Source: a virus
Taxonomy: Duplodnaviria; Heunggongvirae; Uroviricota; Caudoviricetes
Length of the DNA: 10,826 bases
Reading direction: 5' to 3' (one strand)
IMG/VR virus record: IMGVR_UViG_3300012983_002979
Under the pieces are notes generated by a model. The model saw only the letters and a list, made by a program, of their open reading frames with translations. It was not told where the DNA came from and searched no databases. A program made the position numbers and the translations under genes. Of this stretch, positions 1 to 10,826 are shown piece after piece. Numbering within the stretch: the stretch's first letter is position 1; each line of letters begins with the position of its first letter.

Positions 1-120
1 GCTAGTTTGTTAGTGGCGTGTCCGTCCGCAGCTGGCAAGCGAATGTAAAGACTGACTAAGCATGTAGTACCGAGGATGTAGGAATTTCGGACGCGGGTTC
101 AACTCCCGCCAGCTCCACCA
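1..120 (+). ncRNA. ssrA: tmRNA (SsrA), 3' terminal 120 nt; gene is truncated by the window start
   Basis: Sequence matches my recollection of the 3' part of E. coli tmRNA, ending in the tRNA-like acceptor arm GGTTCAACTCCCGCCAGCTCCACCA with terminal CCA at 118-120. Recognised from memory, not from a search. Confidence 0.92.
98..120 (+). other. Putative attL core at the ssrA 3' end (island/chromosome junction)
   Basis: An integrase gene lies immediately downstream of the tmRNA 3' end, and a degenerate copy of this segment recurs at 10688-10707. Exact crossover limits cannot be set from one window. Confidence 0.4.
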
Positions 121-153: not shown

Positions 154-189
154 AAAGCCCGCATGGCGCAAGCCCTGTGGGCTTTTTTG
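154..189 (+). terminator. Rho-independent terminator downstream of ssrA
   Basis: AAGCCC(155-160)...GGGCTT(178-183) stem around a GC-rich loop, followed by a T-run (181-187). Confidence 0.45.
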
Positions 190-232
190 TGTCTACCGTT
201 GTCCGAGGATATCCCGCTAAATCCAGTGATTA

Positions 233-284
233 TTGGTATACGTTTAGGTATACGATAGGATGTATACCTAAACGCGTATACCAA
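233..284. promoter_or_regulatory. Near-perfect inverted repeat of a 22-bp motif (TTGGTATACGnTTAGGTATAC) just upstream of int; candidate integrase arm-type sites and/or int operator
   Basis: 233-253 TTGGTATACGTTTAGGTATAC; 262-284 is its reverse complement with a 2-nt insertion. A third copy lies at 10613-10634 near the right end. It sits between the ssrA terminator and the int RBS (AAGGAG 291-296). Confidence 0.4.
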
Positions 285-1522: not shown

Positions 1523-1546
1523 AAGGCTTTCATTCATGAAAGCCTT
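1523..1546 (-). terminator. Perfect 10-bp-stem hairpin between convergent int and cargo genes; likely terminator for the cargo operon
   Basis: AAGGCTTTCA-ttca-TGAAAGCCTT. On the minus-strand transcript the hairpin is followed by AAAAUUUUU. It overlaps the last codons and stop of cargo gene 2. Confidence 0.45.
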
Positions 1547-2189
1547 CTGTAACAATTATAGGTTCATCTAGCATATATTGTTTTGCAACATATAAAGGAA
1601 AAAAATCTGAGGTATAAAAATTAAAAATATCCCATTGGATATAACACCAAAAAAGAATAACCAAAAGCATCAATGTTATATTTGCCATGGATATATGAAA
1701 ACTCCACAACAAACAAAACAAAAGAGAAAAAATAATCTCAGAGTTAATTATCTTAACTCGAAGATTAGCCTTTTTATCTGATATCTTTTTATCTATCTCC
1801 TTAATAATAAAAAAATCATGGGCATCATTTCGTTTTAACCCCTCATATTTCTCATAAATCCTTAAAATATAGCCATCAAAATCACCAATAAAAACAAGGT
1901 GATTGAAAACTGAAAAGTTTATTTTCTTATGACCATAATTTAAAACCAGAGAAATGATTAGGGCTTGTATTAATTGCAACACTGAAAGCCCTGACAGTAC
2001 TCCCTGTTGAAAATCAAGCACATCCTTAAGGGAAGTTTGATTCATGATATTATATATATCAACATTACCTTTCTGATAAGTCAACATAAAGAAAATTACC
2101 ATGAATAATATCAAAAAACGATGAAGAGGATACTTACAAGTAAGATCCTCAATATATTTCTCTTGGACTTTTTTTGCTAGTTCATCCAT
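1530..2189 (-). CDS. Hypothetical integral membrane protein, ~219 aa, four predicted TM helices (hotspot cargo gene 2)
   Basis: ORF 1530..2222 minus; preferred start is the ATG at 2189-2187 (MDELAKK...), which overlaps the upstream stop as TAATG and has AGGTG 5 nt upstream. Hydrophobic segments FLILFMVIFFMLTY, VLSGLSVLQLIQALIISLVL, IIFSLLFCLLWSF and ITLMLLVILFWCYIQW, with a charged ~60-aa loop between TM2 and TM3. Very AT-rich. Confidence 0.65.
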   Translation of the reverse strand: MDELAKKVQEKYIEDLTCKYPLHRFLILFMVIFFMLTYQKGNVDIYNIMNQTSLKDVLDFQQGVLSGLSVLQLIQALIISLVLNYGHKKINFSVFNHLVFIGDFDGYILRIYEKYEGLKRNDAHDFFIIKEIDKKISDKKANLRVKIINSEIIFSLLFCLLWSFHISMANITLMLLVILFWCYIQWDIFNFYTSDFFPLYVAKQYMLDEPIIVTEGFHE

Positions 2190-3088
2190 TAATACACCTG
2201 TATAAAATATACATCTCCACAATTTGGATCAAAAGCTCCATATTCTATATATGGAGCACCTAAAAACACCATCTCTCTTTCATTCTGAAAATAAGGAAAA
2301 ACCTCTTGAAAATCTTCTTTTGAGGCAAATCTCAGTGTACTTACCGAATTGTTAAAACTGTTTTTCATTTTAGCAGAAAGATATTGCAAATCCATCTCTG
2401 TAACTTTCACTCGATAAATTACAGGGTCACCCAATTTCTTCCTAGTTATAACCCTATGAAAATCATTGGCTTTTGCTCTATTGAACCCAAAAACCTCTGT
2501 GCGATCTGCTGTCAACGATATTTCTAGCGAGCTATCCCCTGAATGATGAGACCTAATAATTGCCAACATTTGATCTATCTCTCTCACAATTGCTCGGTCA
2601 CCATACCGTCGATTAACTGCTGCATCCGGATTTTCCAAAAGTTGCTGATAATCACGAGGTAAAATTTTCTGGCTAGCAATTTGTGCACGTCTAGTCTCTA
2701 CACTTTTACTAATAGTTTCAGCATTTTCAAGACCAGACTGCTGTGCTTCTTTAACTGCATTATTTAGTGCATTTGAAACCCTTTCGACTACTTTTTTTGT
2801 AACATCTTTCTTAGAGAAGAAGTCGATAATATATCCACCTTCTCTAGGGGGCTGTACCAACAGTTCAACATCTTTATAGTAGTCATGATGCATCTTTGCA
2901 TATTTCCAAAGATTACCATGTCTGATGTCAAGATAAGCCCGATCTAAGGCACTTTGCAAATGGCCTAGGCTTTTAGAAAGAGTTCTCAGGGATACTTGGT
3001 GATCAGGTGCAATATCGCCATCAAAATGCAATTCAACAATCGCCACTTCACTTTGCTCCATGTGGAAAAATAAGTCGTTAATGTTCAT
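2189..3088 (-). CDS. Hypothetical protein, 299 aa, no recognisable motif (hotspot cargo gene 1)
   Basis: Long ORF in AT-rich DNA, same orientation as and translationally coupled to the membrane-protein gene. No Walker A, zinc finger or obvious nuclease motif seen by eye. The SD upstream of the ATG at 3088 is weak. Confidence 0.7.
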   Translation of the reverse strand: MNINDLFFHMEQSEVAIVELHFDGDIAPDHQVSLRTLSKSLGHLQSALDRAYLDIRHGNLWKYAKMHHDYYKDVELLVQPPREGGYIIDFFSKKDVTKKVVERVSNALNNAVKEAQQSGLENAETISKSVETRRAQIASQKILPRDYQQLLENPDAAVNRRYGDRAIVREIDQMLAIIRSHHSGDSSLEISLTADRTEVFGFNRAKANDFHRVITRKKLGDPVIYRVKVTEMDLQYLSAKMKNSFNNSVSTLRFASKEDFQEVFPYFQNEREMVFLGAPYIEYGAFDPNCGDVYFIQVY

Positions 3089-5345: not shown

Positions 5346-5424
5346 GGAGACTCATCCTCAGACCGGCAAGCCAGGAAAAGGTCGCAGGAAAAACCGGCTT
5401 ACTGTTTGTTTTTTTATATTTTAC

Positions 5425-5528
5425 TGTTCACCTCTGTTCATCATAAGAAAAAAGATAAGTAATACAGTAAGTTAAAGGGTGAACAATCGCAGTAATGACT
5501 GTTCACCGTCTGTTCACCACTGTTCACC
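5425..5528. repeat. Iteron cluster of TGTTCACC octamers; ori-like replication origin
   Basis: TGTTCACC at 5425, 5500, 5511, 5521 (the last three ~10-11 bp apart), a variant TGTTCATC at 5436, and an inverted GGTGAACA at 5478. The same octamer recurs in the crr-like repeats after alpha, ~4.9 kb away. P4 alpha binds TGTTCACC iterons in ori and crr. Confidence 0.5.
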
Positions 5529-5807
5529 CGTTGATGGGCTTTTTGTGCTGTTTACTACTGTTTGTTTTTATTAATTTGCCGGGAATGAATAAGAAAAAAC
5601 GATTTGTATTTCACTATAAAAATTACGAATTGCTTTAAGTGGCTTTAAATGACTTTAAGTGGAGATGAACAAAAAACACACAAGCATTGTAAGGCTGCCG
5701 GAACAAATCCCCCCTGTTGCGTCTGCTGAAAATATTCACAAAATAAAGCGCTACCCGAAGCCGGACGGACTTATCCGGTGCTGTATGGACATTAACGAGG
5801 TAGCCCG

Positions 5808-6074
5808 ATGCAAGCTGTTTTTTCTTCCCCGTCTCCCGCCCCTGTGACGCCACTGATGCCGCTGCCGGACATCACGCAGGAGCGTTTTTTACGTCTGCCG
5901 GAAGTGATGCACCTGTGCGGCCTGTCACGCTCGACCATCTATGAACTCATCCGTAAGGGGGAATTTCCGCCGCAGGTGAGTCTTGGCGGTAAAAATGTGG
6001 CCTGGCTGCACTCTGAAGTCACCGCATGGATGGCCGGCCGCATTGCCGGACGCAAACGGGGGTATGACGCATGA
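5808..6074 (+). CDS. vis: Vis/AlpA-family HTH regulator, excision and late-gene control (88 aa)
   Basis: [50 protein letters not shown] matches the AlpA-type HTH pattern. 88 aa from the ATG at 5808 (GAGG 8 nt upstream); an alternative start at 5856 would give ~72 aa. Confidence 0.75.
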
Positions 6075-6138: not shown

Positions 6139-6329
6139 TTTTTCCGCTGTCGCAAAATCGGCAGCCGGGCGTAGGAACCCGTGTAACTCGAAGGCGACAT
6201 ATGACGCGCCATGCGTCTTTTTTTGTGTCGCAATCAACGCCACAGAGCGCCAGATTATGGTGTGGCGTGTGGTTTGCCGTGCAGGTATGATCCTGTTCGC
6301 AATCGCATGTTATGCCACTGAGTCAATGG

Positions 6330-6400
6330 TAGCTCAGGCGGGGCAGCCTCCGGGCTGGCCGGTATTCTTCGAGGCCGGTATTCCTACCCCCGTCTGGGCT
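6330..6400 (+). ncRNA. cI: CI-like immunity RNA region (seqB-like core); boundaries approximate
   Basis: The central segment 6367-6387 (CTTCGAGGCCGGTATTCCTAC) is complementary to the bipartite GTAGGAA...CTCGAAG(G) motifs at 6171-6194 and 6414-6453, as in P4 seqA/seqB/seqC. RNA ends cannot be set from sequence. Confidence 0.35.
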
Positions 6401-6463
6401 ATCGCCATCGAGCGTAGGAACTCCGGCGATAGCAGTTATTTGCTACTCGAAGGAGACTGCCTT

Positions 6464-7859: not shown

Positions 7860-10193
7860 ATGAAAATGAACGTAACCGCCACCGTCAGCCATGCGCTCGG
7901 CCACTGGCCGCGTATTCTCCCGGCGCTGGGGATTCAGGTGCTGAAAAACCGTCATCAGCCCTGTCCGGTCTGTGGCGGGAGTGACCGCTTCCGTTTTGAT
8001 GACAGGGAGGGGCGCGGCACCTGGTACTGCAATCAGTGTGGTGCCGGTGACGGCCTGAAACTGGTTGAAAAGGTGTTTGGTGTTTCCCCGTCCGACGCGG
8101 CCGCAAAGGTGGCTGCCGTGACCGGCAGCCTGCCACCGGCTGACCCGGCAGTGACGACCGCCGCCGTTGCTGAAACAGACGCTGCCCGGAAGAGCGCCGC
8201 CGCACTGGCACAAACCCTGATGGCGAAAACCCGTCCCGGAACCGGTAACGCCTACCTGACCCGCAAGGGCTTTCCCGGCCGGGAATGCCGGATGCTGACC
8301 GGCACACTCAGAGCCGGTGGCGTGAGCTGGCGTGCCGGTGACCTTGTGGTGCCACTGTATGACGACAGCGGCGAACTGGTTAACCTTCAGTTAATCAGTG
8401 CTGACGGCCGTAAGCGCACCCTGAAAGGCGGACAGGTCAGGGGCACCTGTCACACCCTTGAAGGACAGAATCAGGCCGGAAAACGTCTGTGGATAGCGGA
8501 GGGATACGCGACCGCACTTACCGTACATCACCTGACCGGTGAAACGGTGATGGTGGCGCTTTCTTCCGTGAACCTCCTTTCTCTGGCCAGCCTTGCCCGG
8601 CAGAAGCATCCGGCCTGTCAGATTGTCCTTGCCGCAGACCGTGACCTCAGCGGTGACGGCCAGAAAAAAGCCGCCGCAGCCGCAGATGCGTGTGAAGGTG
8701 TTGTTGCCCTGCCGCCGGTCTTCGGTGACTGGAATGATGCCTTCACGCAGTACGGCGGGGAGGTCACCCGTAAGGCCATTTACGATGCCATCCGGCCACC
8801 GGCTGAAAGCCCGTTCGACACCATGAGCGAAGCAGAGTTTTCCGCCATGAGTACCAGCGAAAAGGCCATGCGTATCTATGAGCATTACGGCGAGGCGCTC
8901 GCGGTCGATGCCAACGGCCAGCTTCTGTCCCGCTATGAAAATGGTGTCTGGAAGGTGCTGCCGCCACAGGACTTTGCCCGGGATGTGGCCGGGCTGTTTC
9001 AGCGTCTGCGCGCGCCGTTCTCCTCCGGGAAGGTGGCCTCCGTGGTGGACACCCTGAAGCTGATTATTCCGCAGCAGGAAGCCCCCTCCCGCCGCCTGAT
9101 TGGCTTTCGTAACGGTGTGCTCGACACGCAGAACGGCACGTTCCACCCGCACAGTCCGTCACACTGGATGCGCACCCTGTGCGATGTGGATTTCACCCCG
9201 CCGGTGGACGGTGAAACGCTGGAAACCCACGCCCCCGCGTTCTGGCGCTGGCTTGACCGTGCCGCCGGTGGCCGTGCGGAAAAACGCGACGTGATTCTGG
9301 CCGCACTGTTTATGGTGCTGGCAAACCGCTACGACTGGCAGCTCTTTCTGGAGGTGACCGGTCCCGGCGGCAGCGGCAAAAGTATCATGGCCGAAATAGC
9401 CACCCTGCTGGCCGGGGAGGATAACGCCACGTCGGCCACCATCGAGACGCTGGAATCCCCGCGTGAACGTGCCGCGTTAACTGGCTTCTCACTGATACGC
9501 CTGCCGGACCAGGAAAAATGGAGCGGCGACGGTGCCGGACTCAAGGCCATCACCGGCGGCGATGCGGTGTCCGTGGACCCGAAATACCGGGATGCGTACT
9601 CCACGCATATCCCGGCGGTGATTCTGGCCGTGAACAATAACCCGATGCGCTTCACCGACCGCAGCGGCGGCGTGTCACGCCGGCGGGTGATTATTCACTT
9701 CCCGGAACAGATAGCCCCGCAGGAGCGCGACCCGCAGCTTAAGGACAAAATCACCCGCGAGCTGGCGGTCATCGTGCGTCACCTGATGCAGAAATTCAGC
9801 GACCCGATGCTCGCCCGGTCACTGCTTCAGTCCCAGCAGAACTCAGACGAGGCACTGAACATCAAACGGGATGCCGACCCGACGTTTGATTTTATCGGCT
9901 ATCTGGAAACCCTGCCGCAGACCAGCGGCATGTATATGGGGAACGCCAGTATCATCCCGCGTAATTACCGTAAATACCTCTATCACGCCTATCTGGCCTA
10001 CATGGAGGCAAACGGCTACCGGAATGTACTCAGTCTGAAAATGTTCGGGCTGGGGCTGCCGGTGATGCTGAAGGAATACGGACTGAATTACGAGAAGCGC
10101 CATACCAAACAGGGGATACAGACCAACCTGACGCTGAAAGAGGAAAGCTACGGCGACTGGCTGCCAAAATGTGACGACCCTGCAACAACCTGA
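7860..10193 (+). CDS. alpha: Alpha: bifunctional primase-helicase replication protein (777 aa)
   Basis: N-terminal zinc-binding primase motif (CPVCGGSDRFRFDD...WYCNQCG), TOPRIM-like region (LWIAEGYATALT...LAADRD), Walker A (VTGPGGSGKS) in a D5-like helicase domain. 777 aa as in P4 alpha. Confidence 0.95.
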   Translation: MKMNVTATVSHALGHWPRILPALGIQVLKNRHQPCPVCGGSDRFRFDDREGRGTWYCNQCGAGDGLKLVEKVFGVSPSDAAAKVAAVTGSLPPADPAVTTAAVAETDAARKSAAALAQTLMAKTRPGTGNAYLTRKGFPGRECRMLTGTLRAGGVSWRAGDLVVPLYDDSGELVNLQLISADGRKRTLKGGQVRGTCHTLEGQNQAGKRLWIAEGYATALTVHHLTGETVMVALSSVNLLSLASLARQKHPACQIVLAADRDLSGDGQKKAAAAADACEGVVALPPVFGDWNDAFTQYGGEVTRKAIYDAIRPPAESPFDTMSEAEFSAMSTSEKAMRIYEHYGEALAVDANGQLLSRYENGVWKVLPPQDFARDVAGLFQRLRAPFSSGKVASVVDTLKLIIPQQEAPSRRLIGFRNGVLDTQNGTFHPHSPSHWMRTLCDVDFTPPVDGETLETHAPAFWRWLDRAAGGRAEKRDVILAALFMVLANRYDWQLFLEVTGPGGSGKSIMAEIATLLAGEDNATSATIETLESPRERAALTGFSLIRLPDQEKWSGDGAGLKAITGGDAVSVDPKYRDAYSTHIPAVILAVNNNPMRFTDRSGGVSRRRVIIHFPEQIAPQERDPQLKDKITRELAVIVRHLMQKFSDPMLARSLLQSQQNSDEALNIKRDADPTFDFIGYLETLPQTSGMYMGNASIIPRNYRKYLYHAYLAYMEANGYRNVLSLKMFGLGLPVMLKEYGLNYEKRHTKQGIQTNLTLKEESYGDWLPKCDDPATT

Positions 10194-10234: not shown

Positions 10235-10252
10235 ATCCCTGAATTCCCCGAA

Positions 10253-10554
10253 GGTGAACAATCCACTGTTCACCCTTCACCGTATATTCACCCGTTATCA
10301 CACTGAAATTAAAAGAGAAAAACGAAAGGTGAACAGTGTGAACAATCAAATCAAAAAAAACTTTTTTCTCCCTGTGTGATTTTCAGTACGGGGGATTAAT
10401 CACCGGTATGAGTCACACCGGCAGAATGCCGGAGGTGAAGAATCGAATGTTCACCCTTCACCCATTATTCACCACCTATCCAACTGAAATAAAAGGAGAA
10501 AACAGAAAGGTGAACAGTGTGAACAGTTCTTTCGAAAAAAAATTTTTTTCCTGT
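10253..10554. repeat. crr-like cis replication region: two ~120-bp direct repeats (10253-10375 and 10433-10554) separated by ~57 bp, each with TGTTCACC/GGTGAACA iterons
   Basis: The two units align along their length (GGTGAACAATCCACTGTTCACCCTTCACC...GAAAGGTGAACAGTGTGAACA...CCTGT versus GGTGAAGAATCGAATGTTCACCCTTCACC...GAAAGGTGAACAGTGTGAACA...CCTGT). P4 crr is two 120-bp direct repeats ~60 bp apart carrying the alpha-binding octamer. Confidence 0.6.
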
Positions 10555-10612
10555 ACGATATAGCATCAATCCAAGTAAAAATGCGTTTTCATTTCACATT
10601 AACTTACAGCCA

Positions 10613-10634
10613 TTGGTATACGATTAGGTATACG
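10613..10634. promoter_or_regulatory. Third copy of the 22-bp TTGGTATACGnTTAGGTATACG motif; candidate integrase arm site near the right end
   Basis: TTGGTATACGATTAGGTATACG differs by 1 nt from the 233-254 copy. Confidence 0.35.
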
Positions 10635-10687
10635 CACAAAAAATGAATTAAACAAAATCATTAAAAATCAAAGCAATACAATATTTA

Positions 10688-10707
10688 TTCAAACTCCGCC
10701 AGCCCAC
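10688..10707 (+). other. Degenerate copy of the ssrA 3' end; putative attR or junction with a neighbouring element
   Basis: TTCAAACTCCGCCAGCCCAC versus ssrA TTCAACTCCCGCCAGCTCCAC (99-119). Followed at 10741-10774 by a terminator-like hairpin resembling the one at 154-189. Confidence 0.35.
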
Positions 10708-10740: not shown

Positions 10741-10774
10741 AAGCCCACACAGCACAAGCTCTGCGGGCTTTTTT
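10741..10774 (+). terminator. Terminator-like hairpin plus T-run, paralogous to the ssrA terminator
   Basis: AAGCCC...GGGCTT then TTTTTT; similar in sequence and layout to 154-189. Confidence 0.35.
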
Positions 10775-10826
10775 ACGTCTATTGTCGTCCAGTGAGAATT
10801 GCTGAGAACTACGAGTTATGGCACCC

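Follow-up and report, generated by a model that had tools for sequence, protein, structure and literature searches.

In phage lambda, Int is a heterobivalent integrase whose N-terminal domain binds the arm-type sites P1, P2 and P'1-P'3. Repeats in the attP arms of the satellite phage P4 were reportedly described by Pierson and Kahn in 1987. The P4 reference record (NC_001609) annotates 12-mers as "attP arm sequence repeat" and, read in the orientation of int, shows crr, the tandem 12-mers AGTGGGGGCACA and AAAGGGGGCATA, 53 nt and a 20-nt core, followed past the core by 112 nt, the tandem 12-mers ATTGGGGGCATA and ATTGGGGGCATC, 16 nt and an inverted 12-mer that overlaps the int ATG. Sites of this type have also been connected with control of the integrase gene. 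According to two papers (PMC2951348; PMC7286903), P4 Int binds DNA directly at positions comparable to those considered here and thereby represses Pint, and IntS and TorI of KplE1 repress intS via attL sites overlapping its promoter; a passage of the former (Panis et al. 2010, PMC2951348) proposes that repression by an autoregulated integrase is general for tRNA-associated integrases.

The 10.8-kb window (10,826 nt, the whole stretch of DNA analysed) is a complete P4-like satellite prophage in the tmRNA gene ssrA of E. coli. The 3' part of ssrA, the integration target, occupies positions 1-120 on the plus strand (Rfam RF00023, 99.5 bits, model positions 249-374), its 5' part being cut off by the window start, and because of this truncation ARAGORN called no tmRNA in the window. 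Identical E. coli loci carry an ssrA annotation over this stretch, and smpB-ssrA lies directly to the left of the window in E. coli genomes matching at 99-100%. Alignment of the left and right ends places the attL core region, TTCAACTCCCGCCAGCTCCACCA, at 98-120 (+), with an octamer, CCGCCAGC, at 106-113 that is common to attR. On the other side, other E. coli genomes cease to match the window at 10704-10706. This point falls within a degenerate copy of the 3' end of ssrA that contains CCGCCAGC at 10696-10703, which identifies the copy as attR (core region TTCAAACTCCGCCAGCCCAC, 10688-10707, +) and sets the end of the element at about 10704-10706. The initial annotation had noted att-like sequences near its motif, and the two octamers, one of them in the ssrA 3' end, bear this out. 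A highly conserved terminator-like hairpin with a T run at 170-190 (+) is carried by the element itself and takes the place of the ssrA terminator after integration; positions 155-204 recur as a direct repeat of 78% identity at 10741-10790, where the next island has its equivalent terminator.

The gene content agrees with this assignment. int (304-1497, +) begins with GTG, is preceded by the ribosome-binding site AAGGAG (291-296) and encodes a P4-family tyrosine integrase of 397 aa, in which the Pfam matches PF13356, PF22022 and PF00589 represent the arm-binding, central and catalytic domains. Between int and psu, where P4-like satellites carry variable anti-phage cargo, lie two overlapping ORFs of 230 and 299 aa on the minus strand (1530-3088), for which no Pfam or PADLOC match was found; the same ORF pair, at 67% and 85% identity, also adjoins an int of the second type defined below (type B) in a related locus, L028. 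The satellite gene set further comprises psu, delta and sid on the minus strand and vis/alpA (5808-6074, +; Pfam PF05930), the excisionase and regulator gene, whose product is identical to P4 Vis at 87 of 88 positions by BLASTP. ash, orf151 and orf106 stand between vis/alpA and alpha in the gene list of the element, and Rfam matches to isrK (6146-6223, 69 bits) and to C4 antisense RNA (6322-6409, 74 bits) lie inside or beside the ash/icd-like ORF, corresponding to the P4 CI-type immunity RNA region. The alpha primase-helicase gene (7860-10193, Pfam) is followed by a crr-like pair (10248-10548), two direct repeats of 120 nt that share 81% identity and are rich in GGTGAACA iterons. An ori-like cluster is present at 5420-5530 and, like the crr-like pair, is built of GGTGAACA/TGTTCACC iterons that match the annotated type 1 repeats of P4.

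The feature considered here was originally described as a 22-bp motif occurring three times. The 22-nt pattern TTGGTATACGNTTAGGTATACG is indeed exact at 233-254 and at 10613-10634 (0 matches in 200 shuffles), whereas the inverted copy at 261-284 does exist, albeit gapped and mismatched: its reverse complement reads TTGGTATACG-CG-TTTAGGTATACA, with a 2-nt insertion that sets the GGTATAC cores 14 nt rather than 12 nt apart and with one terminal mismatch, and because of these two departures a gapless search misses it. The true repeat is a 12-nt tandem unit, ATTGGTATACGN/TTAGGTATACGN. GGTATAC occurs six times in the window, at 235 and 247 (+), 262 and 276 (-) and 10615 and 10627 (+), against a chance expectation of 0.56 and a maximum of 3 in 200 shuffles. 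All copies are confined to 232-285 and 10612-10635, close to the two att cores (about 120 nt at most), and a looser search of the window for the unit returned no extra copies, for example none inside int, where P4 has one. We designate the candidate arm-type units on the left P'1 (ATTGGTATACGT, 232-243, +) and P'2 (TTAGGTATACGA, 244-255, +), which are followed by two inverted units directly preceding int, P'3 (260-271, -; reverse complement TTAGGTATACAT) and P'4 (274-285, -; reverse complement ATTGGTATACGC); the candidate units on the right are P1 (ATTGGTATACGA, 10612-10623, +) and P2 (TTAGGTATACGC, 10624-10635, +). Relative to the CCGCCAGC octamer, the right-end tandem pair is located 61 nt before and the left-end pair 118 nt after. 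In a full-text literature search, the motif strings turned up nothing but primers unrelated to them.

From the presence of a PF13356 domain in Int, a layout on both arms that matches P4, conservation among relatives and a repeat variant that follows the Int N-domain, we infer that the six GGTATAC units are very probably the arm-type binding sites of the satellite's own integrase, as the initial annotation had suggested. Excision would join the right end (P1, P2, 61 nt and core) to the left end (core, 118 nt, P'1-P'4 and int), producing a single attP of about 400 bp. Int would attach to the 12-nt units through its N-domain (about residues 1-95) and to the core in the ssrA 3' end through its C-terminal domains, and this bridging of arm and core would build the intasome for integration and, together with Vis, for excision. 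As in lambda, short repeats unlike the core are found on both arms of attP, here at a fixed distance from the core, and would be read separately by the N-domain; a recombination directionality factor and bending proteins are likewise expected to act between arm and core. The exact IHF consensus, WATCAANNNNTTR, is found nowhere in the window, which counts against the arm-site reading. The two systems differ in the N-domain itself (PF13356 here, lambda type there), and in the number, orientation and spacing of the sites; moreover, no promoter within attL drives transcription of int in lambda.

The resemblance to P4 is closer. When the ends of the element are joined, the order is crr, P1 and P2, core, P'1 and P'2, the two inverted units, AAGGAG and the GTG at 304, which reproduces the P4 order of alpha, crr, attP and int with a tandem pair of 12-mers on the crr/alpha-side arm and a tandem pair plus inverted 12-mers at the start of int on the other. 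Distances agree as well: 52 nt separate the end of the second repeat (10634) from the TT that opens the core region, compared with 53 nt to the annotated core in P4, and 112 nt separate the core end from the first unit in both, measured in the window from the CCA end of ssrA to 233. Between core and units, the P' arms of the window and P4 are identical at 62 of 113 positions (alignment score 64, versus 19 ± 8 for shuffled sequence). This alignable P' arm and the matching layout indicate that the GGTATAC repeats are the counterpart of a feature known in P4 since the 1980s. There are also differences: the unit is ATTGGTATACG here and ATTGGGGGCATA in P4 (or, in the alternative rendering, GGTATACG and GGGGGCAT), the two Ints are only 36% identical, and the target is ssrA rather than a leucine tRNA gene. 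Two inverted units are present here and one in P4, whose single copy corresponds to P'4, and the extra repeat copy annotated inside P4 int is absent. Since Vis is almost the same in the two elements (87/88) but Int and the repeat are not, the repeat follows Int and not Vis.

A scan of one genome per species yielded 79 loci in Enterobacterales with an Int 68-87% identical to that of the window; their hosts include Escherichia, Enterobacter, Kluyvera, Citrobacter, Erwinia, Pantoea, Serratia, Yersinia and Rahnella, and most of the loci are P4-like satellites with vis, ash and alpha. The initial annotation had left the occurrence of the motif in related elements to a search, and the layout proves to be kept in 73 of 80 sequences of this integrase family, with the tandem pair some 70 nt upstream of the start of int and an inverted unit at about -29. 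Only this int-proximal inverted unit (P'4 in the window) is strongly conserved across relatives; the other (P'3, about -43) is degenerate in most of them and intact only in the Escherichia/Enterobacter/Kluyvera subgroup, which is closest to the window. By phylogenetic footprinting of 68 distinct sequences, the units rank with the most conserved positions of the ssrA-int interval. At the right end, the tandem pair stands 61 nt before CCGCCAGC in every one of the 18 loci (of 20) whose sequence reaches the core. In many loci a lone GGTATAC also occurs about 570 nt upstream of int (e.g., L001:3700-3757); considered as an arm repeat, this copy was rejected, being the extended -10 element of the ssrA promoter (TGGTATACT, TCTGGTATACT).

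The relatives fall into two main groups according to the sequence of the unit. Variant A, GGTATACG, is found in 42 loci including the window and variant B, GGTACACG, in 28; the two differ by one base, and all units of one element share the variant. Agreement between the proximal and distal units was seen in 18 of 19 elements (A-A in 12, B-B in 6 and B-A in 1), for which a Fisher exact test calculated by hand gives p of about 2.6e-4, a value to be read with the phylogenetic non-independence of the loci in mind. A third variant, GGCCCACG, is present in a single locus from Candidatus Symbiopectobacterium (L071:9900-10000), which has the same layout, with TTGGCCTAAG, TTAGGCCCACG and an inverted CGTGGGCC; the right end of this element lies outside the DNA examined.

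The choice of variant is matched by the integrase, and specifically by its N-terminus. As expected of a heterobivalent integrase, Int has a separate N-terminal arm-DNA-binding domain (PF13356, Arm-DNA-bind_3, residues 9-91, E = 1.3e-21). Alignment of 64 full-length Ints reveals seven columns (residues 4, 11, 13, 19, 23, 57 and 76) that split A from B without overlap. Residues 1-95 cluster by repeat variant, with 83% identity within and 66% across types, whereas residues 96-397 cluster by host clade (A26/B25 and A11/B2), with 82% within and 80% across types. A sliding window likewise places the excess A-B divergence only in residues 1 to about 110, a stretch matching the extent of the Pfam arm-binding domain, and the excess falls to 0.00-0.02 from about residue 160 on. 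The repeat sequence thus changes with the cognate N-domain, although physical linkage may account for part of this coupling: in the circular form the distal units, core, proximal units and first 300 nt of int make up one stretch of about 700 bp, and elements so contiguous are expected to be co-inherited whatever their function. The independent switches are few: A and B can be contrasted in two C-domain backgrounds, to which P4, the neighbouring island and L071 are to be added. The cargo genes vis, ash and alpha vary independently of the repeat variant. Apo structures of homologous N-domains are available (3JU0 and 3JTZ), and a PDB sequence search with the N-domain family returned only chains of the isolated domain, none of them annotated as a DNA complex.

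The left-end units also coincide with a promoter for int predicted by eye and from conservation. A -35-like TTGGTA lies within P'1 (233-238), and the TAnnnT sequence that follows it at 17 nt is represented in the window by TAGGAT (256-261, +), directly after P'2. Of 73 loci, 72 have a TTGGTA-N17-TAnnnT pair that overlaps the units; the -10-like hexamer is TATAAT in 14 loci and TATACT in 14, and T256, A257 and T261 are each at least 95% conserved. The -10 of the window itself is weak, and a generic promoter scan of positions 1-420 gave no sigma-70 site at threshold. If TTGGTA-N17-TAnnnT is Pint, transcription would start near 268, so that P'1 would contain the -35 element, P'2 would fill the 17-nt spacer and P'3 and P'4 would cover the start site and leader, and occupancy of the units by Int would shut off int. 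Because the units overlap this conserved promoter-like pair, repression of int by its own product is plausible by analogy with P4 and KplE1. A parallel in arrangement is KplE1 (CPS-53), where int likewise lies beside attL and is transcribed away from the core, and where P' sites cover the -35 and -10 elements. In KplE1, however, repression by both Int and the recombination directionality factor was shown by experiment whereas here repression is predicted, and the integrase there is of another subfamily, the target is argW, the P' motif contains TAAA and the directionality factor is TorI.

The same inverted arrangement could be read in terms of secondary structure, with 232-285 extruding as a cruciform when the DNA is supercoiled or, in transcripts that run in from upstream, folding into an RNA hairpin that attenuates or stabilises the int mRNA. 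Folding lends this some substance: taken as a single strand, 225-295 reaches -31.2 kcal/mol (z = -7.3), the corresponding regions of relatives and of P4 give -19 to -31 kcal/mol, and the inverted unit takes up the T/C change of the direct units, which preserves complementarity. A structural role nevertheless leaves the distal pair at 10612-10635 unaccounted for, since that pair has no inverted partner and yet carries the same variant in 18 of 19 elements, and it provides no function for the tandem 12-nt organisation; in addition, most relatives have a degenerate inner inverted unit, the 5' arm would be untranscribed if TTGGTA-N17-TAnnnT is the promoter, and the terminator at 170-190 stops read-through from ssrA. 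We therefore regard it as very improbable that structure is what the units are for. Folding and binding by Int are not mutually exclusive, and a hairpin may be an additional property of the arm-type sites.

The units might instead be targets of Vis, bound by this AlpA-family protein to bend attL and attR and to repress int. Directionality factors usually bind direct repeats about one helical turn apart, according to a passage of PMC7498355, and the units are in tandem with a period of 12 nt; P4 Vis is moreover said to repress int in passages of PMC7286903 and PMC2951348. The sequence of the units, however, does not follow Vis. P4 pairs a near-identical Vis with another repeat at these positions, and in 45 loci no column of Vis separates A from B, 100%-identical Vis segments occurring with both variants. 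Sites for directionality factors are also normally restricted to one arm, whereas the units are on both. A better candidate for Vis is provided by TCC triplets phased at exactly 10 nt, which form two clusters on the plus strand, at 129, 139 and 149 (cluster 1, 129-151) and at 202, 212 and 222 (cluster 2, 202-224; GTCCGAG, ATCCCG and ATCCAG). Both clusters are conserved in the 68 distinct relatives, and the P' arm of P4 has TCC at aligned positions (9/19/29 and 72/82/92/102 after the core); such an array also suits the way in which directionality factors usually bind (PMC7498355). We infer from this phasing and shared placement that the triplets are putative Vis (excisionase) binding arrays, and we give little credence to the GGTATAC units as Vis sites. 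AAATCC is also found upstream of vis, at about 5704-5712.

Least credible is that the units are an operator through which some other regulator from the host, the satellite or a helper controls int only, the right-end copy being incidental: a palindromic layout over a promoter is typical of dimeric repressors and GTATAC is itself a 6-nt palindrome, but the right-end pair is fixed 61 nt from the core in 18 of 18 relatives and so is not incidental, the palindromy of the unit is gone in variant B (GTACAC), the variant tracks the Int N-domain alone while vis, ash and alpha vary independently, and a host factor would leave unexplained why different integrases of one strain have different repeats.

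Such a second integrase is found next to the element. From 10707 on, the window enters the left arm of another integrase island, arranged in tandem with the first at ssrA in the same strain, whose Int is 48% identical to that of the window. Its first unit begins at 10815, and the corresponding region (L001:14800-14875) contains two direct units, ATGGCACCC/TTGGGACCC, followed by two inverted copies of GGGTCC before the ATG, in a layout like that of the window; this island thereby represents a third repeat core, GGCACCC/GGGACCC. Tandem arrangement also brings the two variants together, as in Kluyvera sichuanensis (L007:20340-20700), where a variant-A satellite is directly followed by a variant-B satellite with a B-type Int N-terminus, so that the two elements have the same core and different arm repeats. 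In L059, by contrast, an A element is apparently followed by A-like remnants. One interpretation of the A and B repeats with their matching N-domains is that they constitute orthogonal arm specificities kept by selection on one pool of core sites and catalytic domains; if so, tandem ssrA satellites would each regulate their own int and excise alone, and mixed intasomes would not form. The sharp, domain-limited divergence between types (66% cross-type identity in residues 1-95 versus 80% elsewhere) is compatible with this idea. A difference of one base may not be sufficient for orthogonality, however, and both L059 and the hybrid element L051 count against it; we consider the interpretation rather unlikely. 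L051 (Citrobacter amalonaticus, int at +7486) combines an int and P' arm of type B with a right-end pair of type A, carries only psu and alpha, and looks like the product of deletion or recombination between two tandem satellites.

As a kind of feature, the repeats are ordinary, being long known for lambda and P4, and, in the literature searched, they had not been spelled out before for this integrase family; the mechanism would be of the textbook lambda/P4 type and leaves existing concepts unchanged. What they offer is a definition of the full attP of the widespread ssrA-targeting P4-like satellites, which aids in delimiting these elements and predicting their mobility. The one-base difference between A and B with their N-domains also represents a natural pair of putative domain and arm site, to which two more distant pairs can be added, as a tool for studying how PF13356 domains read DNA.

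Within E. coli, 444 of 5426 complete genomes carry a member of the int family. At least 80% of the window is found in 294 E. coli genomes, whereas the segment comprising the int upstream region and N-terminal coding sequence (195-500) is matched at 99% or more in only 25, at 80-90% in 357 and at 60-80% in 62. The small number of genomes with a near-identical 195-500 segment, compared with the 294 that have most of the window, suggests that the int/attP module and the cargo seem to reassort within the species.
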